Assembly: GCA_003524085.1 (NCBI GenBank)
Contig: DOEC01000035.1
Span: forward strand, 7,796-71,795
Reading direction: 5' to 3'
From: Bacillota bacterium
GTDB lineage: Bacteria > Bacillota_I > Bacilli_A > RF39 > UBA660
DNA: 64,000 nucleotides
The notes under the pieces are model-generated. The model had not been told where the DNA came from and did not search any database. It was given only the letters and a program-made list of their open reading frames with translations. The translations under genes were made by a program, and so were the position numbers. Positions 12,427 to 62,347 of the stretch are shown here, piece by piece (position 1 is the first letter of the stretch; every line of letters begins with the position of its first letter).

Positions 12427-12599
12427 GCATTTTCTTCCATATTAGAAAGTGCGTAACTAATACACTGCGATATAAACTCATTACGACTAATCTTAGCTTT
12501 ATAAGACTCTCTATCTATAGTTTCTAATAATTTAGTATCAATTCTCATGCTTATAACAACTTTATCATTACTTCCCTTAGAAGGCACAAATTTTTTCAT
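12408..12599 (-). CDS. ribbon-helix-helix (CopG/Arc-like) DNA-binding protein
   Basis: MKKFVPSKG...VVISMRIDTKLLETIDRES...SRNEFI has an RHH beta-strand/helix pattern; RBS GAGGTG 6 nt before ATG at 12599. Confidence 0.5.
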   Translation of the reverse strand: MKKFVPSKGSNDKVVISMRIDTKLLETIDRESYKAKISRNEFISQCISYALSNMEENAKVKQS

Positions 12600-43809: not shown

Positions 43810-46800
43810 ATGGTTAATATAATAAGTGAAAGTGATAACTATACAGTAGTTACTGAGTATAAAGGTTTAGAAAAGAAAAGTGGTACTTATCAAAGTGAAG
43901 ATGCTTTAGAAAAAGAATTAATTAAAACATTAATGGAACAAGGTTATGAGTATTTAACTTTTAATAGTGAAAGTGAATTAATTAGTAATTTAAGAGATAA
44001 ACTTGGTAAACTTAATAATCATGTGTTTAGCGATAATGAGTGGAATAATTTATTTAATAATGTAATAGCTAATAAGAATAATCATATACTTGAGAAAACT
44101 AAGATAATTCAAGAAGATTATAAACAGCCTTTAAGACTTGATAATGGAGAGTTAATTAATGTTTATTTAATAGATAAAGATAATATACATAATAATTGTC
44201 TACAAGTAATTAATCAGTATGAAAATAATGATGGTAATCATGAAAATAGGTATGATGTAACTATACTAGTAAATGGTTTACCTTTAGTACATATTGAACT
44301 TAAAAGAAGAGGAATAGACTTAAGAGAAGCATTTAATCAAATAGATAGATATCAAAGAGACTCATTCTGGGCTGGAAGTGGTTTATATGAATATATTCAA
44401 ATATTTATTATAAGTAATGGAACATATACTAAGTATTATTCTAATACTACAAGAGATTTACACTTGAAAACAGGTACTAAGAAAACTTCTAATACATTTG
44501 AATTTACTTCTTATTGGTCAGACCAAAATAATAATTCAATTATTGATTTAATAGATTTTGCTAAAACTTTCTTAGCAAAACATACTATCTTAAATGTACT
44601 TTGTAAGTACTGTGTATTTTCAACTGATGGCACTCTTTTAGTTATGAGACCTTATCAAATAGTTGCTACTGAAAAGATTATTAATAAAATAGAAATATCT
44701 CATAATTATAAATTATATGGAAGTATTAAATCAGGTGGATATATTTGGCATACTACAGGTAGTGGTAAAACACTTACAAGTTTTAAAACAAGTCAACTTG
44801 CTAGTAAGTTAAGTTTTATTGATAAAGTTGTATTTGTTGTTGATAGAAAAGACTTAGACTATCAAACAATGAAAGAGTATGATAAATTTAAAGAAGGATG
44901 CGCTAATAGTAACTCTAATACTAAAATACTAGAGTCTCAACTAGCTGATAATGATTCTAAAATAATAATAACTACTATACAAAAATTAACTAATTATATA
45001 AAGAAATTTCCTAAACATAATGCATTTGATAAACAAGTAGTATTTATATTTGATGAATGTCATAGAAGTCAATTTGGAGATATGCACAAAGCTATTATAT
45101 CTAAGTTTAAGTATTACTATATATTTGGTTTTACTGGTACTCCTATATTTAAAGAAAACGCTATAACTAGAAAAAGTATAGTCTTAACAACTGAGCAAGT
45201 ATTTGGAGAAAAACTACATACTTATACTATTGTAAATGCTATAAATGATAAAAATGTATTACCTTTTAGATATGAGTTTGTAGAAAATATTGGTAGAAAA
45301 AGTGATATAGAAGATGAAATGGGTTTTAAAATTGATAAAAATAGAGTATTTAATAACCCAGTTAGAATAGAACAAATAACTAAGTATATTATCAATAACT
45401 TTGCTAGAAAAACTAAAAATAATGAAACTTATTTATTTAGTACTTTAGATAATGTTAAAGAAGTTGCTAAAGATAATAACGCTGTTGAAGTTAAGAAAAA
45501 GTATTATGTAAATGGATTTAATTCAATATTTGCTACTTCTTCAATTGAAGCTGCTAAAAAGTACTATGAATGTTTTAAAAATATACCTAACAATTTGAAA
45601 GTCGCTTTAATATATAGTTATGGTGTTAATGATGAAGTTATCACTTGCTTTGATGATGAAAACTCTGAGTCTGCGGAAAATCTAAGTAAAAGTGATAGAG
45701 ATTATTTAGACTATGCCATTAAAGACTATAATAAAATGTTTGGAACTACTTATGATACATCTAATGAAAAATTTCAAAACTATTATAAAGATGTTTCTCT
45801 TAGAATGAAGAATAGAGAAATAGACATTTTAATTGTTGCTAATATGTTTTTAACTGGTTTTGACGCTAAGACATTAAATACTTTATGGGTTGATAAAAAT
45901 CTTAATTATCACGGACTTATTCAAGCATTCTCTAGAACTAATAGAATACTTAATTCTGTTAAAACATTTGGTAATATAGTATGTTTTAGAGATTTGGAAA
46001 AGGAACTTAATGATGCATTAGGTTTATTTGGAGATGCTGAAGCGTCTAGCATCGTTTTGTTAAAACCGTATGAAGACTATTTAAATGGCTATGATGATGG
46101 TAAACATAGTTTTGTAGGTTATATAACTTTAGTTAATGAACTTAAAAGTAAGTTTAATCCAGGTGAACTAATAGTTGGAGAGAGTAAACAAATTGAGTTT
46201 ATCAAGTTATTTGGACAAATATTAAAAGCTAGAAATATTCTTTCTACTTTTGATAAGTTTAGTAATGATGATATATTAGACGCTAGAGACGAACAAAATT
46301 ATAGAAGTACATATATTGAACTAAATAGTCAGTATAAACAGAGAATGAAAGCAGATAAACTTGATGTTAGTAATGATATAGTCTTTGAAATGGAATTAGT
46401 TAAACAAATAGAAGTTAATGTTGACTATATTTTAAATTTAATTAAAGAGTATCATGATGGTAATATGGAAAATAAAGAGTTATTGATTACTATTAATAGA
46501 ATGGTTATGTCCAGTCCTGACTTAAGAAATAAGGTTGACTTAATTGATGAGTTTATTAGAAGTTTGAATAAAGATAGTAATGTATATAATGACTTTAATT
46601 CTTTTATGAATAGTAAAAAGAAAGAAGAGTTAGACAAAATAATTTCAGAAGAGAACTTGGATAAAGAGAAAACTTATGTCTTCGTAAAAAGAAGTTTTGA
46701 AAACGGAAGAGTAGAAACTAATGGTACAGAACTATCATCTATATTACCAGCAATGAGTAGGTTTGAAGCAGATAAAAAAAGAACAAAGAAGAAAGAGAGT

Positions 46801-46863
46801 GTTGTTGAGAAGCTAATTGGTTTCTTTGATAAATTCTTTAGTATTAGTAATTCAGAATTTTAG
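43810..46863 (+). CDS. hsdR: type I restriction enzyme R subunit
   Basis: N-terminal nuclease ILVNGLPLVHIELK; SF2 motifs HTTGSGKT, DECHRSQ; 1017 aa. Confidence 0.9.
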   Translation: MVNIISESDNYTVVTEYKGLEKKSGTYQSEDALEKELIKTLMEQGYEYLTFNSESELISNLRDKLGKLNNHVFSDNEWNNLFNNVIANKNNHILEKTKIIQEDYKQPLRLDNGELINVYLIDKDNIHNNCLQVINQYENNDGNHENRYDVTILVNGLPLVHIELKRRGIDLREAFNQIDRYQRDSFWAGSGLYEYIQIFIISNGTYTKYYSNTTRDLHLKTGTKKTSNTFEFTSYWSDQNNNSIIDLIDFAKTFLAKHTILNVLCKYCVFSTDGTLLVMRPYQIVATEKIINKIEISHNYKLYGSIKSGGYIWHTTGSGKTLTSFKTSQLASKLSFIDKVVFVVDRKDLDYQTMKEYDKFKEGCANSNSNTKILESQLADNDSKIIITTIQKLTNYIKKFPKHNAFDKQVVFIFDECHRSQFGDMHKAIISKFKYYYIFGFTGTPIFKENAITRKSIVLTTEQVFGEKLHTYTIVNAINDKNVLPFRYEFVENIGRKSDIEDEMGFKIDKNRVFNNPVRIEQITKYIINNFARKTKNNETYLFSTLDNVKEVAKDNNAVEVKKKYYVNGFNSIFATSSIEAAKKYYECFKNIPNNLKVALIYSYGVNDEVITCFDDENSESAENLSKSDRDYLDYAIKDYNKMFGTTYDTSNEKFQNYYKDVSLRMKNREIDILIVANMFLTGFDAKTLNTLWVDKNLNYHGLIQAFSRTNRILNSVKTFGNIVCFRDLEKELNDALGLFGDAEASSIVLLKPYEDYLNGYDDGKHSFVGYITLVNELKSKFNPGELIVGESKQIEFIKLFGQILKARNILSTFDKFSNDDILDARDEQNYRSTYIELNSQYKQRMKADKLDVSNDIVFEMELVKQIEVNVDYILNLIKEYHDGNMENKELLITINRMVMSSPDLRNKVDLIDEFIRSLNKDSNVYNDFNSFMNSKKKEELDKIISEENLDKEKTYVFVKRSFENGRVETNGTELSSILPAMSRFEADKKRTKKKESVVEKLIGFFDKFFSISNSEF

Positions 46864-47172: not shown

Positions 47173-47811
47173 ATGTCAAAGTATAAGTTATTATTAGATG
47201 AGTCAGGTTCTTTTGAAAATAAAGACGAAAAATATGTAATAATAGGTGGGGTTCTCTTTAAAGAAGAATATCAACCTGAACTTGAAAAGATTTTTGTTCC
47301 ATTGCATACTCACTTACGTAATGTTTTAAAATGCACTGAGTTACATGCTACTAGAAATAAAGAACTTTTTGATTATTTGGCTCCTATTTTGGGAGCTTGT
47401 GAATACATAACTCCTATCGTTTTTGTTATTGACAAAAAGAGTAGCTTTATTTTTGATAATTATGATCATAAAAGTTTTAAATATAATAAAGCAATTCAAC
47501 ATTTAATTAAAAAAATGATTAAGAATGGATTAGTCAATAATGATGATGAACTATATATAAAAATAGATAACATTAATCTAAATAGAGATGAAACTGATAA
47601 TTTAACAAATTGGTTGCCAAAAAATATGAGTATTGTTAAAGAGGTAAAACAAGGTGACTCTAGAGATTATATTGCTTTGCAGCTTGCTGATATAATTGTT
47701 AATAATTTTAGTAAAAAAACAACTTGTAAACTAAATTCAGTAAGAGTAAAAATGTTATCTCCAAAGATTTATTGTTTTTTAAATAAAACTGTAAAAGAGT
47801 ATTTTATATAA
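47173..47811 (+). CDS. DUF3800-family protein
   Basis: N-terminal LLLDESGSF...GGVLF and C-terminal QLADI motifs. Confidence 0.65.
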   Translation: MSKYKLLLDESGSFENKDEKYVIIGGVLFKEEYQPELEKIFVPLHTHLRNVLKCTELHATRNKELFDYLAPILGACEYITPIVFVIDKKSSFIFDNYDHKSFKYNKAIQHLIKKMIKNGLVNNDDELYIKIDNINLNRDETDNLTNWLPKNMSIVKEVKQGDSRDYIALQLADIIVNNFSKKTTCKLNSVRVKMLSPKIYCFLNKTVKEYFI

Positions 47812-47869
47812 CTATTGCTTTGTTTTTGATGAATTAAGTGTTATAATTATCTTACATTCAGGAGGTTAT

Positions 47870-48592
47870 ATGAGAAATGAAGTGCAAGAAATATATATAA
47901 ATTTAGATGATTCTGGTAAATTAAGTTCTAAAGAAGACATTAGTGTGTATGGCGGTGTCGTATTTTTAAGTAAAAAAGAGAAAGATAAATTTATAACTCA
48001 GTATAAAAAGATTATAAATGAGGTCAAGTGTGAATACTGCAAGATATGTAATCACGCCTGTCCTGAGATTAAAAATACAAATATTAAGCCAGAACATAAG
48101 CGTTGGTTAATGAATTACATTAAAAATTATTTTGTAGTTGGGTTAATAATTGAAAATAAAAAGGTGTATGAAGAAATATTACAAAGTAAGGCATCAAAAG
48201 GAAGATTTACTGATTATGCTATTCGTAGGCTTATTAAAGAAATATTAAAGTCACTAATTAAAGAAGGCAAAATCGATCCATATAAGCCTGTTAAGATTGT
48301 ATTAAATATAGACCAACAAAGTACAAAAAGTAATGGATATTATAATTTACGTGATGGTATATTAGAAGAGCTTAAATATGGAATATCTGCCTACAATTAT
48401 TCTGTTAAGAGAAAGAAAATAGTTTACTCTGATTTAGATATTTTAGTTACTTATCAAGTATCTGCTAAGAGTTATGTTATTCAAGCAGCTGATTTACTAG
48501 CAGGTACAATAAGAAGAACTGTACTTGACAACATTGAAAACTATGGAAGAGCTTTATCAAAATTTGTGGACTTAAAAATAAAACTTCCATAA
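47870..48592 (+). CDS. DUF3800-family protein (paralog of preceding gene)
   Basis: LDDSGKL...GGVVF and IQAADLLAG motifs. Confidence 0.65.
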   Translation: MRNEVQEIYINLDDSGKLSSKEDISVYGGVVFLSKKEKDKFITQYKKIINEVKCEYCKICNHACPEIKNTNIKPEHKRWLMNYIKNYFVVGLIIENKKVYEEILQSKASKGRFTDYAIRRLIKEILKSLIKEGKIDPYKPVKIVLNIDQQSTKSNGYYNLRDGILEELKYGISAYNYSVKRKKIVYSDLDILVTYQVSAKSYVIQAADLLAGTIRRTVLDNIENYGRALSKFVDLKIKLP

Positions 48593-48595
48593 AAG

Positions 48596-48620
48596 AAAAA
48601 AAGCCATTACTGGCTTTTTC
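48596..48620 (+). terminator. rho-independent terminator AAAAAGCCA-TTAC-TGGCTTTTT
   Basis: read directly from the sequence. Confidence 0.6.
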
Positions 48621-48862
48621 CCAATTAGGGCGGCGTACTTAGAATTACGCTTAAATATAAATATTCGCGACCTAACTATCGACCTGACGAGATTTCTCTC
48701 CGGTAATACAATAATACACTATTTTTATTAAAATGTCAAACATAATTTGACATTGTGTCAAGAAAACAGTTACATTTTGTATTATTGTATATAAATATTA
48801 TATGCGTTATATGCCTAATTATACTTTATTAAAAAAGTAAATATATAATGTTTATATCAATA

Positions 48863-53414: not shown

Positions 53415-53487
53415 CCCCCTTAATTACTATAATTATACCATATTTGGTACACAAAGTTAATTTCCACATAAATAAGCAAACATTTTG

Positions 53488-53516
53488 TTGACAAACAAAT
53501 ATACATATTTTATAAT
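53488..53516 (+). promoter_or_regulatory. consensus sigma-A promoter TTGACA-17nt-TATAAT
   Basis: followed by AGGAGG and ATG 53536. Confidence 0.65.
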
Positions 53517-53535
53517 AGTATCAGGAGGCATAAAG

Positions 53536-54111
53536 ATGATAGAAAATTTTATAATTACATATATTACTGATTATAATCCATATTTAATGGAAGAAGCAAC
53601 TGCTGTTTTTAATCAAGATGGCACGTTTAACAGGCTTAGAATAGAAGAGGAGGAATATAGAAGTTTAGAAGTAAAAGAGGCACAGAAAAGAGCAAAAGCG
53701 CATATAAAAGAACAAAAAGGGATATCGTATAAAAATATATTAACTTCTAATACAATATTAATAGACGACAAAACTGCAAATGAGTATATATATTCATGTT
53801 ATACAAGATGGTCAAAAACAGACATGAAATATGTCAAATGTATTCTTGCCAATTATATTAAGGAACTATTTATGAATGCTAATAGCAAAAGTTATGAAGC
53901 AAATAGAAAAAATAAACATAATTTAGACGCAATGTATGGTTTCTATAAATATGGAGCTAAGTTTTCTATTGTTGATAATGGTAAAGAAACAATTTATACT
54001 TGTTCACTTTTAGTAAGAAACGATGCGAATGGTAAAAAATATTTATATGATATTTTAGATATTAAAAAAATTAACCAAGTAAGCTTAGAAAAGTATTTTC
54101 AAACTACTTAG
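53536..54111 (+). CDS. hypothetical protein (192 aa)
   Basis: start MIENFIITYITDY at M18 of ORF 53485, perfect RBS. Confidence 0.6.
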   Translation: MIENFIITYITDYNPYLMEEATAVFNQDGTFNRLRIEEEEYRSLEVKEAQKRAKAHIKEQKGISYKNILTSNTILIDDKTANEYIYSCYTRWSKTDMKYVKCILANYIKELFMNANSKSYEANRKNKHNLDAMYGFYKYGAKFSIVDNGKETIYTCSLLVRNDANGKKYLYDILDIKKINQVSLEKYFQTT

Positions 54112-54140: not shown

Positions 54141-54716
54141 ACCTCCATACGAGCCTTCCGTTTAAAATAAACCAGGCATATCTATGCTCCAGCACCTTGC
54201 TCATGAATAAATTATAGCATATCATTTACTAAAAGTAAACACTATATAAAAATTGTTAACATAAACATAATTAAATATGCAATAAAAAAGACGAGTTACC
54301 TCCATACGAGCCTTCTGTTTAAAATAAACTAGGCAAAGCTATGCTCCAGCAACCTGTCATGTATAAATTGTAGCATATCATTTACTAAAAGTAAACAACT
54401 AAAAAGTATCTTTTTAAGCATATAATTGTGAAAGTAAAATAAAAAAAGGAACGAGCTACCTCCATGCGAGCCTTCCGTTTAAAATAAACCAGGCAAATCC
54501 ATGCTCCAGCAACCTGTCCATGTACAAATTATAACATATCATTTACAAAAAGTAAACAAATAAAAAGTATCTTTTAAGTGCTAAAATAGTAGAATAAAAT
54601 AAAAAAGAACGAGTTACCTCCATACGAGCCTTCCGTTTATGATAAACCAGGCATAGCTATGCTCCAGAAACTTGTTCATGAATAAATTATAACATATCAT
54701 TTACTAAAAGTAAACA
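54141..54716 (-). repeat. array of four tandem ~160-bp repeats (conserved ~100-bp cores at 54141-54241, 54298-54397, 54458-54558, 54616-54716), each with a minus-strand TTTACT-17nt-TATAAT promoter and short leaderless ORF
   Basis: direct visual alignment of four copies; periods 157/160/158 bp. Confidence 0.8.
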
Positions 54717-54738
54717 AATAAATTTTTGAAAAATATAC

Positions 54739-54767
54739 TTGACAAGTGTAATAAATACGCATATAAT
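54739..54767 (+). promoter_or_regulatory. sigma-A promoter TTGACA-17nt-TATAAT for Nudix-regulator gene
   Basis: read directly from the sequence. Confidence 0.55.
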
Positions 54768-54790: not shown

Positions 54791-55462
54791 ATGCAGTTAA
54801 CAAACCCTTTATATAAAAATATTGGAGTACATGTTATTACTAGTATTTTTACAGTTGACAAAGGTGTAGTTAAAGTACTACTTGTTAAAAGAACTAATGA
54901 ACCATTTAAAGAAAAGTGGAGTTTAGTAGGAGGTGCACTTTACAACAACGAAAGACTAGAAGACGGAGTTAAAAGAGAAATATTTGAAAAAAGTGGCTTA
55001 ACTGATGTAAATGTTTATTTTTCAGGAGTGTTTGATGAAATTGATAGAAGTCCTGTTAGAAGAATGATAGCTTTAACTTATGTTGGACTAATAGACGCAA
55101 ATAAAGTTCAAGTACTAAAGAAAACTCTTAAAACTGATAATTCTGACTGGGTCCCAATTGATAAAGTTCAAAATTTGGCAGGTGACCATAACAAGATTTT
55201 ATTAAAAGGCCTAGATACTTTAAAAGAGCTAATTGTAACAACTGACATATTAAAAAGCTTATTTCCGAGTGGTGTAACCATTCCTGAAATACAAAAGACT
55301 TATGAAAGTATACTAAATAAGTCATTTGATAGACGTAACTTCAGAAAGAAACTTCTTAGTCTAGGTATAATAGAAGACACTAATAAATATATGGTATTTG
55401 AAGGGAAAAAACCTGCTAAGTTATATAGATTTAATAAAAAGAAAAATAAGAATGTATTATAA
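54791..55462 (+). CDS. Nudix hydrolase-domain + C-terminal winged-helix protein (NrtR-like regulator)
   Basis: Nudix box GGALYNNERLEDGVKREIFEKSGL; ~100-aa C-terminal extension typical of NrtR. Confidence 0.65.
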   Translation: MQLTNPLYKNIGVHVITSIFTVDKGVVKVLLVKRTNEPFKEKWSLVGGALYNNERLEDGVKREIFEKSGLTDVNVYFSGVFDEIDRSPVRRMIALTYVGLIDANKVQVLKKTLKTDNSDWVPIDKVQNLAGDHNKILLKGLDTLKELIVTTDILKSLFPSGVTIPEIQKTYESILNKSFDRRNFRKKLLSLGIIEDTNKYMVFEGKKPAKLYRFNKKKNKNVL

Positions 55463-55515
55463 ATACATTTTTATAAAGAAAATATAAGTGTACAAAATAC
55501 ACATAAGGAGGAAAA

Positions 55516-56034
55516 ATGAAAGATTTGTATATTGATTTTGATGGAGTAATTAAAGATACTATAAAAGTATCTTACAAAATGATGGAAGATGAAAAAATTG
55601 ATTTAAGAGATCGACCTAAAGTAATTGAATTCTATAAGCAACTTGACTGGGAATACTTACTTAAAATAAGTGCTGAAATAAAAAATGCTTATCACTTTAT
55701 AAATAAAATCTCAGAAGAAGGAACATTTAATCCTAAAATACTTACAACAGTTAATTCTCTTAATGAGATAAAAGCAAAACTAAGTGACATAAAAAAGAAT
55801 TGTAAAAACATCACTCTGGTGTCAGTGCCATCTGGAATTGAAAAGTCAGTCTTAGTAAATCCAAAGAATTCTATTTTAGTAGATGACTACCGTGGCAACT
55901 TAATCTCGTGGCAAAATTCTGGTGGAATTCCAGTGAAATTTGCAAACGAAATAAGTAGTGAATTTATAACAATCAATACATTAGAAGTATTTACAGAAAA
56001 AGAAATATGCAAAAATTTGTGTTTAAGGAGGTAA
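55516..56034 (+). CDS. HAD-superfamily 5'(3')-deoxyribonucleotidase-like protein
   Basis: DLYIDFDGVIKDT (DxDGV motif I) in a 172-aa protein. Confidence 0.6.
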   Translation: MKDLYIDFDGVIKDTIKVSYKMMEDEKIDLRDRPKVIEFYKQLDWEYLLKISAEIKNAYHFINKISEEGTFNPKILTTVNSLNEIKAKLSDIKKNCKNITLVSVPSGIEKSVLVNPKNSILVDDYRGNLISWQNSGGIPVKFANEISSEFITINTLEVFTEKEICKNLCLRR

Positions 56035-56039
56035 TTAAA

Positions 56040-56567
56040 ATGAAAGAAGATACAAGAAACATAGCGTTACAAAAATTAAAAACTCTTAAAAGCGAAAGAG
56101 AAGAACTATTGTCTTTACAAAAAGAACTAAATGATTTAAAAGAAAATGACTTAGTCAAAAGGTACTTGTTTTTAGATAGTTTTCTAAGTAAAACAAACAT
56201 AGAAAGTGATAAAAAGTTAATATTAGATTCCTTTAGTTCTCTAATTAGAAACAACGAATGCACACACGACATATGGGTATATCTAGGTAGCTTTTATTAC
56301 GTAGACGATATGTTTAGGTCATATAGTATAAAAGTCCCAAACGAAAGAGATAAAAAGTTTGAGTATAATCTGTATGGATGTTTGGAATGTGACGAAACAG
56401 TAGAAACTAGTGACTATATAAAATTTGAAAGCGAGCACATATGTTTAAAAACAAGAAAATATGTTAACATCTATGAGCTAAGAAAACAATATTTTGAATA
56501 TTTAACTGAAATGAATGTAGACGAAACAGTCAAGAAATTAACGAGTATGTTTGGAGGTGAATTATGA
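56040..56567 (+). CDS. hypothetical protein (175 aa), operon member
   Basis: AGGAGG RBS; Cys/His cluster CLECDETVETSDYIKFESEHIC. Confidence 0.55.
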   Translation: MKEDTRNIALQKLKTLKSEREELLSLQKELNDLKENDLVKRYLFLDSFLSKTNIESDKKLILDSFSSLIRNNECTHDIWVYLGSFYYVDDMFRSYSIKVPNERDKKFEYNLYGCLECDETVETSDYIKFESEHICLKTRKYVNIYELRKQYFEYLTEMNVDETVKKLTSMFGGEL

Positions 56568-57223
56568 GCTGTTTATATTATTATTCACTTAATGATGGAA
56601 ATGTAGAAAAATACAAAATTAGTATTGACGAAGAAAAACTAAGCAAGATAAAAGAAAAAAGCATTTATAAATGTGGAAAAAAGAAGAAAGTGAGCTATGA
56701 AGGCGTAAGATTTTTTAAAAATAATATGTACTATACTGATTTTAAAGAAGTTGACCTAGGATGGAGAGAATACAAAGATGGTCCAGACGAAAAACTGTAT
56801 AGATATAGTTTCACTGAATACGTTCCAACCTATTTATCACAATTAATAGATATTATCATAAGTTCAAGTAGCGAAAAAGCAATAAGAGAATTATTTCAAA
56901 TGGACCTATCTAAAGAATTTTGTGGCTTTCAAAAAGAAATAAACGATATACTTAATAAAGCTAGCAAGATAAGTGACAGCGACTACAAAAATAAGATAAA
57001 CGCTTTAAACGAATTAAAAAACATTTACGAAGAAAAAGAATTTAATAGTGACAGAGAGGACATAAGCATATACTATAAAGAAGCTTTCACTTGCTTCCAT
57101 GTTGAACTAATAGATAAGATTACATTAGAAGAATATAACAAAGTTATCAATTTTATTAACGGTATACCATTTACAAACGATAAAGTTTGTGATTTAATAT
57201 TAAGAATGAAGGAGATGTTTTAA
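56564..57223 (+). CDS. hypothetical protein (219 aa), operon member
   Basis: ATGA overlap with upstream gene. Confidence 0.55.
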   Translation: MSCLYYYSLNDGNVEKYKISIDEEKLSKIKEKSIYKCGKKKKVSYEGVRFFKNNMYYTDFKEVDLGWREYKDGPDEKLYRYSFTEYVPTYLSQLIDIIISSSSEKAIRELFQMDLSKEFCGFQKEINDILNKASKISDSDYKNKINALNELKNIYEEKEFNSDREDISIYYKEAFTCFHVELIDKITLEEYNKVINFINGIPFTNDKVCDLILRMKEMF

Positions 57224-57823
57224 ATGGATAGTTATATTAGCTTTAGATATTTAAACAAAAAATTATTAGACCAATATAAAGGTTTGGTGCCAGTTGAAAT
57301 TGAATGTTCTAGAAGACACTATAATGGAGTAGACTATGATACTTACTCATATTCAACAATTGTATATTATAAGAAAGAAAATTTTAATCCTAAAAACTAT
57401 AAAAATGTTAAAACTTTTGGTAATGAGTTAACAGTTATAGACTTTGAATACGATTTTGAAGATTATATGAACTTTATTAAAGACTGTGAATTCAAATTAA
57501 GAGACGAAATAGTAGATAAACCATTGGGTATTTACTTATTTCAAGTAAACCATCACGTAGTAAAAGACGGAAAATGCTTACTTGTTAATACCAAAGATAA
57601 CAAATATGATTTAGATAATTTTGTTATGAGTGTAGTAGAAGAACTAAACTTATTAAGTGAGTCTTCTAGAAAAAAGATTATATCACAGTATGAACTAATA
57701 AGGTATAAACTATTTAAGAGTGAAGAATTAAGTAGAAAAGAATATGATTTATTAAGTAGTTTATTAGATAAAGACATAGACGAAAAATTAGAAGAACTAA
57801 CTGTATTAAAGCTTAGCTTATAA
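57224..57823 (+). CDS. hypothetical protein (199 aa), operon member
   Basis: TAAATG junction with upstream gene. Confidence 0.55.
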   Translation: MDSYISFRYLNKKLLDQYKGLVPVEIECSRRHYNGVDYDTYSYSTIVYYKKENFNPKNYKNVKTFGNELTVIDFEYDFEDYMNFIKDCEFKLRDEIVDKPLGIYLFQVNHHVVKDGKCLLVNTKDNKYDLDNFVMSVVEELNLLSESSRKKIISQYELIRYKLFKSEELSRKEYDLLSSLLDKDIDEKLEELTVLKLSL

Positions 57824-57841
57824 TAAAGGAGGAATAAAAAA

Positions 57842-58399
57842 ATGATATATTTAATGAGACATGGGCATGAAGATGAAGGATTTATCGGTGGTTGGAGTGA
57901 TACACATTTAACTCAGAAAGGTGTAAACGAAAGTGTAAACGCTGGGAACTTTATTGTTAATAAAGGGTTAGTTATTAACAAAATATTGTCAAGCAATATA
58001 ACAAGAGCAAAAGAAACAGCAAGGATTATTAATTCAAAATTAAATGTGCCTTTGGAAATAACAAAACTTTTAAATGAACAAGATAAAGGCATTATTAATG
58101 GTATTCCTTTACAAATGGCTGAAGAGTACTATAGTGAATTTATTAATACAGAAGATATTTACAAAAGGTTTCCAGAAGGAGAAAGTTTAAGCGATTTTTA
58201 TAATAGAATACTTTACTATTATCATGATATTTTAAAAGAAGACAATACATTATTAGTAACTCATAGTGGTGTCATTAATATGATTTACTATATTCTTACT
58301 AATACAAAGTTAGGCTATAATAAGAAAGGATTTAATGTAACTCACTCTAGTATTCATGAATATGATCCAACATTAAAGAAAATAAAAAGAATATATTAG
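57842..58399 (+). CDS. histidine phosphatase (phosphoglycerate mutase family)
   Basis: LMRHGHEDEG (RHG motif); AAAGGAGG RBS. Confidence 0.75.
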   Translation: MIYLMRHGHEDEGFIGGWSDTHLTQKGVNESVNAGNFIVNKGLVINKILSSNITRAKETARIINSKLNVPLEITKLLNEQDKGIINGIPLQMAEEYYSEFINTEDIYKRFPEGESLSDFYNRILYYYHDILKEDNTLLVTHSGVINMIYYILTNTKLGYNKKGFNVTHSSIHEYDPTLKKIKRIY

Positions 58400-58443
58400 A
58401 AAAAAGTAAAAAATAAGGCGTGTGTTAAAATAAACGCCTTATT

Positions 58444-59082
58444 TTAGTTTATATAATAAAGTAGCTTTATCCTTTTACCCTTTGTTTCTATAAGCATGTC
58501 GTCTTTTAAATTTTTAATTTCTCTAGACAAGGCACTTCTATTAACTGCTAGATAGTCAGCTAGTTCAGTATAACTCATTGGCAAATAAATAACTTTTGAA
58601 CCTGTTTTTTTACTTAATATTCTAAAATAATCTAAAAGCTTATCTCTTATACTTTTATTTGATAACACTTCTATTCTCTCATTCGCTTTTGCAATTATAG
58701 TTGTTAAAATATTTATTAAGTTTTTTAAAAATTGATTATAAAAAGTAAAACGATTTTCTTTCATATTTAAAATTGAATTAAAGTCTATTATTACTATTTT
58801 TGTTTCTTCTTTAGTAATTACTTGATATTCTTCGTTTTTAAGTGGATAACTAAGACTACCAAATAACGAATTTTCTAAAAAATCTTCAAGAATAGTCCTG
58901 TTACCCTCGATATCATTTCTTACTATTTGCAAGTGCCCAGTTAAAATAATACATATAAAGTTATCATTTATCATGTTACTCAATATTTCCTTATTTTTCG
59001 GGTATTTATAACTAATCACCTCCAAATAAGCCAGCAGTTTTTCCCTGTTTTTTTGGCTAATATTATAAAATAATTCGTTCAC
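58444..59082 (-). CDS. Crp/Fnr-family transcriptional regulator
   Basis: N-terminal cNMP-binding-like beta-barrel region, C-terminal HTH YTELADYLAVNRSALSREIKNLKDD. Confidence 0.75.
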   Translation of the reverse strand: MNELFYNISQKNREKLLAYLEVISYKYPKNKEILSNMINDNFICIILTGHLQIVRNDIEGNRTILEDFLENSLFGSLSYPLKNEEYQVITKEETKIVIIDFNSILNMKENRFTFYNQFLKNLINILTTIIAKANERIEVLSNKSIRDKLLDYFRILSKKTGSKVIYLPMSYTELADYLAVNRSALSREIKNLKDDMLIETKGKRIKLLYYIN

Positions 59083-59200
59083 TTTACATCACCTAAAACT
59101 ATTTTATCAAATTTTTGTAATTGTTGCAATTGCAACATTAACTTTTATATACGATGTTGTATAATTGACTTATAAAAATGATAAGAGAGAGGTAAATGAA

Positions 59201-61384
59201 ATGAAGGTAATTAAAAGAGATGGACATATGGTAGACTACTGTCCAGAAAAAATTGAACAAGCTATAATGAAAGCTAATAAGGAAGTAGAAGAAGAAGATC
59301 AAGCAAGCAGTACTCAAATTAAAAATATTATTAAATATATAGAGAAACTTGGTAAGAAGAGAATACTAGTTGAAGATATTCAAGACATTATAGAAATGAA
59401 ACTTATGAGTCAAGGAAAGTATGAACTTGCAAAACATTATATCACTTACAGATATACTAGAGAATTAGTAAGAAAAAGTAATACAACTGACCAATCTATT
59501 AAGGAATTAATTGATGGAGAAAGTGAGTACTGGAATACAGAAAATTCAAATAAAAATGCTAAAGTAGTAACAACACAAAGAGACTACTTAGCAGGCATAA
59601 CTAGTACTGATATAACTAGAAGATTTTTACTACCTGAAGATATAGTTGAAGCTCATGATGCAGGTATAATACACTTTCATGATGCTGACTATTTTGCACA
59701 AAATGCATTACATAATTGTGACTTAGTAAACCTAGAAGACATGCTACAAAATGGAACTAGCATTAATGGAGTAATGATAGAAAAACCACATAGATTTTTA
59801 ACAGCTATGACTATTGCAACTCAAATAATTACTGCAGTTAGTAGTAGCCAATATGGAGGTGTTACAATAACTTTAACACATCTAGCACCTTTTGTTAGAG
59901 AAAGTTATAATAGATATTTAGATAAATATAAAAAGAGAAAATTAAGTAAAGAACAATGTGAAAAATTTGCAATGGAAGATACTAAAAAAGAAATAGTAGA
60001 TGGAGTACAAACTTTCCAATATCAAGTTAATTCAATGACTACAACTAATGGTCAAGCACCATTTTTAAGTGTATGTATGTATTTAGGAGAAACCAATGAA
60101 TACAAAGAAGAATTATCTTGGATTATAGAAGAGTTCTTGCACCAACGTATATTAGGTATGAAAAATGAACAAGGTGTATATATTACTCCAGCTTTTCCAA
60201 AACTTCTTTATGTGTTAGAAGAAGATAACATTAATAAAAATGGTAAATATTACTACTTAACTAAACTAGCAGCAGAATGTACTGCAAAGAGAATGGTACC
60301 AGATTATATCAGTGAAAAAATAATGAAAGAATTAAAAATTGATAAAAATGGTAATGGTAACTGCTATCCTTGTATGGGATGTAGAAGTTTCTTAACTCCA
60401 TATGTTGATGAAAATGGTAAACCTAAATACTATGGCAGATTTAATCAAGGTGTTGTTACAATTAACTTAGTTGATGCTGCTTTATCAAGTGACAAAGATA
60501 TGGATACATTCTGGCAAATATTTGAAGAAAGACTTGAGTTATGTCATAAAGCTTTACAAATTAGACATAAACGTTTAAGCAAGGCAACAAGCGACGTTGC
60601 GCCTATACTTTGGCAACATGGTGCATTAGCAAGACTTAAAAAAGGAGAAAGCATTCATGATTTATTACATAATGGTTACTCAACAATAAGTTTGGGTTAT
60701 GCTGGACTTTATGAATGTGTTAAATACATGACAGGACACTCTCACACAGACAATGGAAAGGGTAAAGAATTTGCTCTTGAAGTTATGGAAAAAATGAATG
60801 CTAAATGTAAAGAATGGAAAGAACTTGAAAACATTGACTACAGTGTTTATGGTACACCAATAGAATCAACTACTTACAAATTTGCAAAATGTTTAAAAGA
60901 CAGGTTTGGTGTTGTTAAAGGAATTACAGATAGAGACTATATCACTAATTCATATCATGTTCCTGTGTTTGAAGAAATAGATGCATTTACTAAATTAAAA
61001 CTAGAAAGTGAATTCCAAAAACTTAGTCCAGGTGGAGCAATTAGTTATATAGAAACACCTAACCTTACTAATAACTTAGATGCAGTATTAGAAGTAATAA
61101 CATTTATTTATAACAATATTATGTATGCAGAGTTAAATACAAAGAGTGACTATTGTCAAGAATGTGGATATACTGGAGAAATATTAATAGATGATAATAT
61201 GGAATGGTACTGTCCAAACTGTGGAAATAGAGATCACAACAAACTTAATGTAGCAAGACGTACTTGTGGTTATATTGGAACTAATTTCTGGAATAAAGGA
61301 AGAACTCAAGAAATTAAAGAAAGAGTTTTACATATAGACAATAAAGAAGAAAAGGATAATAAGTTAGACAAGGAAGAAAAATAA
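59201..61384 (+). CDS. nrdD: anaerobic ribonucleoside-triphosphate reductase
   Basis: ATP-cone MKVIKRDGHMVDY; C-terminal Zn ribbon CQECGYTG..CPNCGN and glycyl-radical region RRTCGYIG. Confidence 0.9.
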   Translation: MKVIKRDGHMVDYCPEKIEQAIMKANKEVEEEDQASSTQIKNIIKYIEKLGKKRILVEDIQDIIEMKLMSQGKYELAKHYITYRYTRELVRKSNTTDQSIKELIDGESEYWNTENSNKNAKVVTTQRDYLAGITSTDITRRFLLPEDIVEAHDAGIIHFHDADYFAQNALHNCDLVNLEDMLQNGTSINGVMIEKPHRFLTAMTIATQIITAVSSSQYGGVTITLTHLAPFVRESYNRYLDKYKKRKLSKEQCEKFAMEDTKKEIVDGVQTFQYQVNSMTTTNGQAPFLSVCMYLGETNEYKEELSWIIEEFLHQRILGMKNEQGVYITPAFPKLLYVLEEDNINKNGKYYYLTKLAAECTAKRMVPDYISEKIMKELKIDKNGNGNCYPCMGCRSFLTPYVDENGKPKYYGRFNQGVVTINLVDAALSSDKDMDTFWQIFEERLELCHKALQIRHKRLSKATSDVAPILWQHGALARLKKGESIHDLLHNGYSTISLGYAGLYECVKYMTGHSHTDNGKGKEFALEVMEKMNAKCKEWKELENIDYSVYGTPIESTTYKFAKCLKDRFGVVKGITDRDYITNSYHVPVFEEIDAFTKLKLESEFQKLSPGGAISYIETPNLTNNLDAVLEVITFIYNNIMYAELNTKSDYCQECGYTGEILIDDNMEWYCPNCGNRDHNKLNVARRTCGYIGTNFWNKGRTQEIKERVLHIDNKEEKDNKLDKEEK

Positions 61385-61890
61385 TGGCAAGGTATAATTT
61401 AATTAGAAAAATGGATATTTCTGATGGACCAGGTATTAGAGTTTCTATATTTATGCAGGGATGTGCTTTCCATTGTAAGAATTGTTTTAATAAAGAAACT
61501 TGGGACTTTAAGTTAGGTCATGAATTTACTGATGAAACCATTAATAAAGTTCTAGATTTGTGCGATAACGAAGTGGTAAAAGGCTTATCTATTTTAGGAG
61601 GTGAGCCACTTCATCCACTTAATATAGAAGCATCTACAAAACTTGCAAGTGCATTTAAATGGAGATTTCCTAATAAAGATTTGTGGGTTTGGACAGGATT
61701 CTTGTATGATAGAGATTTAACTGGAAAAGAAATACTAAACTATATAGATGTTTTAGTTGATGGACAATATGTAGACGAGTTACATGACTTTAATTTAAAG
61801 TGGAGAGGTTCATCTAATCAAAGAGTTATAGACGTGAAAAAAAGTTTAAAGAAAGGAAGTATTGTATTACTAGAAAGTGCTTATGAATAA
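61384..61890 (+). CDS. nrdG: anaerobic ribonucleotide reductase activating protein (radical SAM)
   Basis: CxxxCxxC GCAFHCKNCFN; overlaps nrdD stop. Confidence 0.85.
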   Translation: MARYNLIRKMDISDGPGIRVSIFMQGCAFHCKNCFNKETWDFKLGHEFTDETINKVLDLCDNEVVKGLSILGGEPLHPLNIEASTKLASAFKWRFPNKDLWVWTGFLYDRDLTGKEILNYIDVLVDGQYVDELHDFNLKWRGSSNQRVIDVKKSLKKGSIVLLESAYE

Positions 61891-62347
61891 TAGAGGGTTT
61901 GAAGTAGCTAAAGGTTACGAAAATATGGGAGTTGTTATGCCCGTTAGAAAAACCAAATATAGTGCAGGCTATGATGTTGAAGCAATAGAAGACACAGTTA
62001 TTCCACCATTTAAGCCAGGTATGAAACCAACTTTGGTTAAAACGGGACTTAAAGCATATTGTCAGAATGATGAATTCTTTATGTTAGTCAATAGGTCAAG
62101 TAATCCTGGGAAAAAAGGACTAGTTTTAGCAAATAGTGTTGGAATAATTGATGCTGACTATTATAATAATCCAGATAACGATGGACACTTTATGTATGCA
62201 TATTATAACTATTTTAACGAAGACGTAGTTATACATAAAGGTGACGTTATTGGTCAAGCAATATTTATGAAATATTTAATAACTGATACAGATAATGCAA
62301 CCGGCGAAAGACTTGGAGGTTTCGGTTCAACAAGCAAACAAAAATAG
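61883..62347 (+). CDS. dut: dUTP diphosphatase
   Basis: motif III RSSNPGKKGLVLANSVGIIDADY and motif V ERLGGFGSTSKQ. Confidence 0.8.
   Translation: MNNRGFEVAKGYENMGVVMPVRKTKYSAGYDVEAIEDTVIPPFKPGMKPTLVKTGLKAYCQNDEFFMLVNRSSNPGKKGLVLANSVGIIDADYYNNPDNDGHFMYAYYNYFNEDVVIHKGDVIGQAIFMKYLITDTDNATGERLGGFGSTSKQK

Follow-up and report, generated by a model that had tools for sequence, protein, structure and literature searches.

This study concerns a 64,000-nt stretch of DNA from a Bacillota bacterium (GenBank assembly GCA_003524085.1, contig DOEC01000035.1), hereafter the window, and within it a six-gene operon in which a transcriptional regulator is followed by five proteins, all of them annotated as "hypothetical protein" at NCBI. 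All coordinates are positions in the window. Its list of open reading frames (ORFs) places six plus-strand ORFs in 54791–58399. The first (54791–55462, 223 amino acids, aa) encodes a regulator of the NrtR/AraR family, in which a winged helix is joined to a Nudix-like sensor whose Nudix box is degenerate (REIFEK). Downstream lie the genes for a divergent HAD-superfamily phosphatase resembling 5′(3′)-nucleotidases (HAD; 55516–56034, 172 aa), for three unknown proteins, p3 (56040–56567, 175 aa), p4 (56564–57223, 219 aa) and p5 (57224–57823, 199 aa), and for a branch 1 histidine phosphatase (HP; 57842–58399, 185 aa). The p3 protein consists of an N-terminal helical (coiled-coil-like) region and a C-terminal Cys/His domain, p4 is predicted with confidence to adopt an alpha/beta fold and has no known relative, and p5 belongs to a hypervariable family described below.

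The six genes form a single, tightly coupled unit. Transcription signals begin with a Sigma-70 promoter on the plus strand at 54739–54767 (TTGACA-17-TATAAT), which agrees with the consensus at 12 of 12 positions and occupies the same position in all lineages compared. The junctions between the cargo genes are 5, -4, 0 and 18 nt (HAD/p3, p3/p4, p4/p5 and p5/HP, respectively), the start of p4 overlapping the p3 stop (ATGA), and ribosome-binding sites of the AGGAGG/GGAGGT type precede all six gene starts. A hairpin at 58410–58445 (-15 kcal/mol, z = -5.03 vs. shuffles), located between the convergent HP and Crp/Fnr genes, is probably a bidirectional terminator. The tight operon proposed in an earlier note, which was made from the letters of the window and its ORF list, was thus borne out by the perfect promoter, the strong ribosome-binding sites, the overlapping or abutting genes and the terminal hairpin; of the gene spacings given there, the last three proved exact and the first is 5 nt rather than 6. 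The products of p3, p4 and p5 are acidic and soluble, and their composition is native to the genome.

Two palindromes of the form GYGTA-N5-TACRC accompany the operon. Operator 1, GTGTAATAAATACGC (54746–54760), is situated within the promoter spacer, and Operator 2, GTGTACAAAATACAC (55488–55502), immediately 5′ of the second gene's ribosome-binding site. The pattern occurs at three sites in the window, vs. 0.05 expected, and it agrees with both the GT-N7-AC core of NrtR operators (PMC2330246) and the GTGT motif of BtAraR (PMC4666351). In every lineage the locus carries two palindromes, one in the promoter spacer and one before the second gene, and the second is kept ahead of whichever gene follows the regulator, be it HAD or p3. 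Among the distinct palindrome sequences the symmetric positions were T/A in 11 cases, C/G in 4 and mixed in 4, so that mixed sites are a minority and most variants preserve the dyad by paired T-to-C and A-to-G changes. In sequence these palindromes fit the operator type of NrtR/AraR regulators, and they are predicted repressor sites. The third exact match to the pattern, GCGTAACTAATACAC at 12451–12465, lies inside a 63-aa minus-strand ORF of ribbon-helix-helix-like character that is flanked by leuS and a DUF6273 gene; this site could be due to chance or could belong to the regulon as a remote member.

The regulator contains the Pfam domains NUDIX (E = 3.6e-12) and NrtR_WHD (E = 7.1e-18), both over their gathering scores, which confirms the NrtR-like assignment made at first reading. 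Against the NCBIfam NtrR model it scored 123 bits (E = 1.5e-35), far under the 400-bit cutoff. The nearest solved structure is BtAraR, the Bacteroides L-arabinose repressor (PDB 5bs6, E = 1.5e-32), whereas Shewanella NrtR was matched only at 4e-12. A weak PADLOC match of the Nudix domain was to the candidate PDC-S07 (E = 4.1e-5). BtAraR is known to read its GTGT half-site with K179, R180, N181 and K184 (PMC4666351); its DNA-reading residues are retained in the regulator as R-R-N-F-R-K, and the wing is still basic. The Nudix signature GX5EX7REUXEEXGU reads G-x5-E-x7-REIFEKSGL, with the second Glu of the EE pair replaced by Lys, and this REIFEK form is common to the window regulator and all orthologues inspected from the four architectural types (A–D) defined below.

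Reading the alignment at the pocket, we found that the equivalents of R34, R86 and H131, which contact the sugar in BtAraR, are kept, and that the positions of BtAraR Phe36 and Leu67 are occupied by Asn and Lys. These two residues correspond to Asn43 and Lys76 of Shewanella NrtR, which bind the alpha-phosphate of ADP-ribose (ADPR), and the Lys at the Leu67 position is the same Lys that breaks the Nudix box. From the impaired Nudix box together with the Asn, Lys, Arg, Arg and His at the pocket positions, a handful of aligned residues, we infer that the regulator may serve as a sensor without catalytic activity, its ligand being a phosphoribosyl nucleotide such as ADP-ribose.

To establish which genes belong to the system, we compared by tblastn about 50 related loci, each found by way of p3 or p4 and each belonging to a single uncultured clade of gut Bacilli. 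Four architectures were distinguished. Type A, that of the window, has the order regulator-HAD-p3-p4-p5-HP between OGG and Crp-nrdDG-dut. Type B (the CAG:628 type; regulator-p3-p4-p5-HP) and type C ((p0)-regulator-HAD-p3-X-p4-HP-(AbiEi-AbiEii)) occupy the same site, and type D, consisting of regulator-p3′-p4′ only, lies in a different chromosomal context. Regulator, p3 and p4 are the only trio present in every lineage. HAD is missing in L013, L014, L016, L018, L028, L031–L038, L040 and L045–L051, HP is missing from the type-D lineage, and p5, p0 and X are present in zero to two copies per lineage. The locus is therefore divided into a core (regulator, p3, p4) and accessory genes (HAD, p5, HP). 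This division also decided on a five-gene, co-conserved pathway bracketed by phosphatases, as envisaged in the earlier note, which had named a failure of co-conservation in other genomes as grounds for giving it up: regulator, p3 and p4 co-occur throughout, and HAD, p5 and HP are dispensable and independently exchanged, so that the proposal held in part for the core and not for the five genes as a unit. In one complete-chromosome metagenome-assembled genome (MAG; L018, CP091726.1, 7048–9074) the regulator, p3′ and p4′ are frameshifted along with neighbouring housekeeping genes; as intact versions are present in L016 and L046–L051, these frameshifts look like long-read indel error and not pseudogenisation.

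An index of the assembly collection lists the exact p4 sequence in 304 blocks; the six p4-bearing places inspected all lay on metagenome contigs, and one of these was labelled human gut. A relative of p3 was present in 8 of 185,579 GTDB species-representative genomes, the carriers being uncultured Bacilli, "Clostridium sp. CAG:628" or an "Eubacteriales" MAG, one with a chromosome of 1.46 Mb. Word-indexed searches of 5.8 billion proteins with p4 and p3 yielded 17–20 clusters, all belonging to this clade, with identities reaching down to about 50%; the corresponding p5 search gave no useful match.

The two core proteins are real genes under purifying selection that is somewhat more relaxed than on their flanks: their ratio of nonsynonymous to synonymous substitution rates (dN/dS) is about 0.15–0.3, compared with 0.04–0.15 for the flanking housekeeping genes. 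These values, and a predicted local distance difference test (pLDDT) score of 87.5 for the p4 model, indicate that p3 and p4 are functional. Neither p3, p4 nor p5 gave a significant match in Pfam, NCBIfam, PHROGs or PADLOC, no PDB profile search with p3, p4, the p5 family or HAD returned a match below E = 0.2, and the confident p4 model had no match in PDB or BFVD. No relatives of p3 or p4 were found in IMG/VR. In p3, residues C74, H76, C114, C117 and H133 are invariant among 14 homologues. Apart from a weak similarity to DUF7418, for which no literature was found, p3 resembles no described family in these searches. At first reading the three proteins had been called devoid of recognizable domains, and neither profile searches nor AlphaFold models nor fold searches changed this; the Cys/His cluster pointed out in p3 (CLECDETVE..ESEHIC) is real, except that the last Cys of the quoted motif is not conserved.

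The accessory phosphatases differ in how well they can be placed. HP matches Pfam His_Phos_1 (E = 1.8e-27) over residues 2–181 and has its RHG motif at residues 6–8, as expected from its original description as an RHG histidine phosphatase closing the operon. Its nearest NCBIfam model is alpha-ribazole phosphatase, under cutoff; no equivalog cutoff was reached, and its PDB relatives include fructose-2,6-bisphosphatase and CobC. The window HAD protein had no Pfam match at E ≤ 0.1 and none in NCBIfam, HAD_2 (Pfam) being reached only at E = 0.031 and in two of five orthologues; no match was found in PDB sequences, nor by tblastn in phages. Residues D7, D9, T77/T78, K110 and D123/D124 are invariant in the five orthologues and fit HAD motifs I–IV (DxDxV, T/S, K, DD). 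Of the label "DxDGV HAD 5′(3′)-deoxyribonucleotidase-like" that it first received, the HAD part agrees with the motifs, although its support is weaker than the note implied; the deoxyribonucleotidase part has behind it one PHROG match, to phrog_2643 "5'-3' deoxyribonucleotidase" (E = 1.8e-11), which is the sole family match of this protein.

The third accessory element is p5. An exhaustive phmmer search against 1.84 billion representative proteins returned only fragments of p5 itself, and in a 90% clustering p5 was mis-clustered with p4. Pairwise comparison revealed a distant relationship of p5 to p0 (E = 1e-6) and X (E = 4e-4), which occur in other lineages, and the three align collinearly with 23–26% identity. 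Judged by these alignments, p5, p0 and X are one divergent family whose members differ in position, copy number and sequence. A paralogous origin of p5 from p3 or p4 was also considered and was ruled out by hhalign.

The locus displays unusual evolutionary dynamics. Synonymous divergence (dS) of p5 is about 0 between species whose flanking genes differ by a dS of 0.2–1, which implies a very recent cross-species spread. HP alleles fall into two classes, one sharing about 70% and the other at least 90% identity with the copy in the window, and these are exchanged across species independently of the neighbouring genes. Between L015 and L042, X is only 37% identical and differs in length (192 vs. 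127 aa), and p3 is 76% identical, in a setting where neighbouring genes are 96–99% identical; L028 and L030 belong to one species and have two different architectures. Allele exchange, mixed architectures and the divergence of X together mark the locus as a hot spot of recombination that includes a hypervariable slot. In some type-C strains a pair of AbiEi/AbiEii-like genes is located between HP and the Crp/Fnr gene (L010, 2871–4130; L015, 10276–11540; L042, 9282–10540). Pfam AbiEii is recorded for the L010 gene, and L010 and L042 carry the pair in partly fragmented form. The insertion shows that mobile cargo of the toxin-antitoxin or defence kind can be taken up here.

How the operon relates to known systems was assessed first by its regulator. 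The NrtR family comprises Nudix-related transcriptional regulators with a GT-N7-AC operator core (Rodionov et al., 2008, PMC2330246). With the ADPR-sensing Shewanella prototype our system shares the degenerate-Nudix sensor and C-terminal winged helix, a palindrome with that core overlapping the promoter, the placement of the regulator inside its own operon, and the Asn and Lys at the positions that bind the ADPR alpha-phosphate. It differs in its cargo, which here consists of two novel proteins plus optional phosphatases; unlike in NrtR targets, Pfam, NCBIfam and the locus comparison revealed no domain of an NAD biosynthetic, salvage or uptake pathway among the operon genes of any lineage. With BtAraR (PMC4666351) the regulator shares the DNA-reading residues, the GTGT half-site and the sugar-contacting Arg/Arg/His, but the residues that block the nucleotide pocket there (F36, L67) are polar or basic here, and the host phylum is different. 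Pentose or arabinose genes were absent from the loci, and the combination of an AraR-type pocket (R34, R86, H131 with F36, L67 and Y5) with such targets was not found.

NrtR-regulated pairs of unknown function outside NAD metabolism have a precedent in nrtX-nrtY of Proteus, Hahella and Streptomyces (PMC2330246). Proteus nrtX-nrtY were examined as possible equivalents of p3 and p4 and were rejected, since they resemble neither; the two ORFs, divergent from Proteus nrtR, look, by sequence, like SPFH/band-7-type and NAD-kinase-type proteins. We also followed up a putative phage carrier of an AraR-type regulator 35% identical to ours (L052; MT837665.1, an unverified "Bacteriophage sp." entry from human faeces). 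This looks instead like a Bacteroides-type chromosomal ara locus, with neighbouring ORFs read as aldose epimerase, sodium:solute transporter, araD and araA and a GC-like composition of 52–55%.

The closest parallel in overall logic is provided by the ARG-centred systems under Nudix-helix-turn-helix (HTH)/WYL repressors, which are predicted to counter viral ADP-ribosylation (Iyer, Burroughs, Anantharaman and Aravind, 2022, PMC9503650, section 3.8). These contain coupled phosphatases, including a HAD 5′-nucleotidase, together with variable modules and with chaperones, among them a peptide-binding type of the T3SS/YbjN (TY) fold, and evolve rapidly (PMC9503650). Common to both are a negative regulator of the Nudix-HTH kind, coupled phosphatases that include the HAD 5′-nucleotidase type, and a conserved core with fast-evolving components around which modules are gained and lost between close genomes. 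On the other hand, no chaperone, Macro, NADAR or restriction endonuclease module was recognised here, HP stands in place of their usual rhodanese-phosphatase, and gut Bacilli are not among the listed hosts. As the defining ARG and every other recognised ADP-ribose-processing domain are absent, we did not file the operon as a member of this group.

Taking these data together, the reading that we prefer is that of a self-repressed, ligand-derepressed module that answers an ADP-ribose-type signal or conflict. As a whole statement it is tentative and, in our estimate, falls somewhat short of an even chance; its regulatory component, taken by itself, stands on far firmer ground. A single transcription unit would repress itself through a dimeric NrtR/AraR-family repressor acting on two 15-bp palindromes, the first set between the -35 and -10 boxes of the sole strong promoter and the second just ahead of the next gene's ribosome-binding site. 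Release of the DNA would be triggered by a small ligand, for which ADP-ribose or a similar phosphoribosyl nucleotide is the most likely candidate. The constant payload released in this way would be two novel cytoplasmic proteins, p3 with helical arms and a putative Cys/His metal site and p4 with its unmatched alpha/beta fold, around which lineages gain, lose and exchange HAD, HP and p5/p0/X. The p3-p4 pair may act on or bind a target bearing ADP-ribose, the phosphatases may clear released nucleotides, and the p5 family may provide a rapidly changing recognition or adaptor function. This scheme is modelled on the Nudix-repressor/phosphatase conflict systems of Iyer et al. (2022; PMC9503650); the ligand identity, the biochemical role of each cargo protein and the conflict context are its conjectural parts, and the structure of the operon, the family of its regulator, the operators, the division into core and accessory genes and the evolutionary dynamics are its observed ones. 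Features reminiscent of conflict, namely the divergence of X, the near-zero dS of p5, the exchange of HP alleles and the adjoining AbiE pair, were counted in its favour.

Several observations weigh against it. In most lineages the operon sits at a fixed syntenic site amid housekeeping genes and its core is under ordinary purifying selection, so that it resembles a lineage-specific physiological module more than a patchy defence island. There is no Pfam match to ARG, Macro or NADAR in any ORF or in the p3, p4 and p5 families, and p3, p4 and p5 lack both PADLOC and PHROG matches as well as viral-contig relatives. The proposed ligand leans on only a few aligned residues, and the regulator is nearer by sequence to the arabinose sensor BtAraR than to the ADPR-sensing NrtR. 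Finally, a collection of loci assembled by way of p3 or p4 has the absence of the module from sister genomes outside its scope.

Ranked second is the first idea of the earlier note, a metabolic role in the salvage or detoxification of NAD or nucleotide derivatives, in which the regulator would sense NAD turnover, the phosphatases would act on nicotinamide or nicotinic acid mononucleotide (NMN, NaMN), deoxynucleoside monophosphates (dNMP) or ADPR-derived phosphosugars, and p3-p4 would be novel enzymes or subunits. All characterised NrtR-family regulons are metabolic (NAD synthesis and salvage, pentose use), and the fixed locus and the purifying selection on its core agree with such a role. Two phosphatases are present and the operon adjoins nrdD-nrdG-dut, yet no other enzymes are recognisable and these two can be dispensed with, HAD being gone from many lineages and both from type D. 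The genome is small, judging by the 1.46-Mb chromosome of one relative, and dependence on salvage is possible, but the operon contains no known NAD or nucleotide salvage gene. Single-gene sweeps across species and hypervariability are unusual in a plain metabolic operon, and neither p3, with its helical arms and putative metal site, nor the p5 family looks enzyme-like. We regard this account as possible but doubtful.

A sharper version of the preferred, ADP-ribose-responsive reading would make regulator-p3-p4 an unrecognised, ADP-ribose-induced conflict module in which p3 and p4 together replace ARG, to remove, bind or answer ADP-ribose marks or NADase products, and in which p5, p0 and X serve as interchangeable recognition or anti-counter-defence subunits in an arms race with phages. 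Stated in this specific form, it seems rather unlikely.

Two further explanations appear quite improbable, and to about the same degree. According to the first, the operon is an AraR-type regulon that responds to a free pentose or other sugar and has no link to NAD or ADP-ribose. BtAraR is indeed the nearest solved relative (1.5e-32 vs. 4e-12) and its R34, R86 and H131 are conserved; against this, Phe36 and Leu67 are exchanged for Asn and Lys as in the ADPR-binding NrtR, and no sugar transporter, isomerase or kinase was found in or beside the operon in any lineage. According to the second, the genes have no joint function, and the site is a recombination hot spot 3′ of a lineage-specific repressor that collects unrelated, hitch-hiking orphans. 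A mosaic of gene content, order and alleles within and between species would be consistent with this, as would the AbiE pair and the tandem repeat array (see below) at the site. However, regulator, p3 and p4 stay linked, with the second operator directly 5′ of the cargo, even at the relocated site of type D; overlaps and strong ribosome-binding sites are retained, and p3 and p4 are under purifying selection. Nucleotide-depletion anti-phage defence, with HAD and HP draining dNMP and deoxynucleoside triphosphate (dNTP) pools upon infection, was raised by the earlier note and is the least probable of all, a very faint prospect, in spite of the phage "5'-3' deoxyribonucleotidase" PHROG matched by HAD and the conflict-like variability of the locus, because the two phosphatases are the non-conserved parts, PADLOC-DB 2.0 gave no match for HAD, p3, p4, p5 or HP, no dNTPase, deaminase or other known depletion effector is encoded, and a monophosphate nucleotidase makes a poor depletion effector.

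Several features were noted around the operon. On its 3′ side, 58444–62347 contains a Crp/Fnr-type regulator gene (minus strand) followed by nrdD, nrdG and dut. This segment is syntenic with the operon in types A–C and not in D, hence nucleotide-metabolism genes are no obligatory neighbours of the module. On the 5′ side, a stand-alone gene for an LPD3 protein ("large polyvalent protein-associated domain 3"; 53485–54111, plus strand) has its own perfect promoter at 53488–53516. It lies 5′ of the operon in types A and B and is absent in C and D; L007 has a 294-aa domainless minus-strand ORF at this place. Between the LPD3 gene and the operon promoter there is a minus-strand tandem array (54141–54722) of 3.7 units of about 158 nt. 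A unit comprises a promoter of the extended -10 type (TTTACT-17-TGnTATAAT), a hairpin about 62 nt long with imperfect pairing, and a U-run. In 27 related loci its copy number is 1–4 per strain, with compensatory changes at two predicted base pairs, and its units match no Rfam family; the array may represent a new set of small-RNA genes. The unit closest to LPD3 has no U-run and would read antisense into the 3′ end of LPD3. The array also holds a conserved 21-codon leaderless ORF, the substitution pattern of which does not support coding. Further upstream, at 47173–48711, two adjacent DUF3800 genes are followed by a DUF3800-I RNA on the opposite strand (Rfam RF02969, 66.6 bits), and a large gene 5′ of this pair (43810–46863) matches the type I restriction HsdR called there in L005.

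What is new in these results is an NrtR-type regulon with orphan cargo. The system is, as the earlier note supposed, undescribed. Repressors of this type are known from NAD and pentose metabolism; the payload here is without a recognisable metabolic gene and its conserved part comprises two proteins of unknown fold, that of p4 being apparently new. The module is fixed in a prevalent, uncultured lineage of the human gut. If the ligand is ADP-ribose, the sensing of NAD breakdown would be tied to a new effector pair, and the repressor, its 15-bp operators and four small soluble proteins, all expressible, would offer a simple experimental handle on two orphan families. If the operon is instead a plain metabolic one, it would supply new enzyme candidates in a gut symbiont with a reduced genome.

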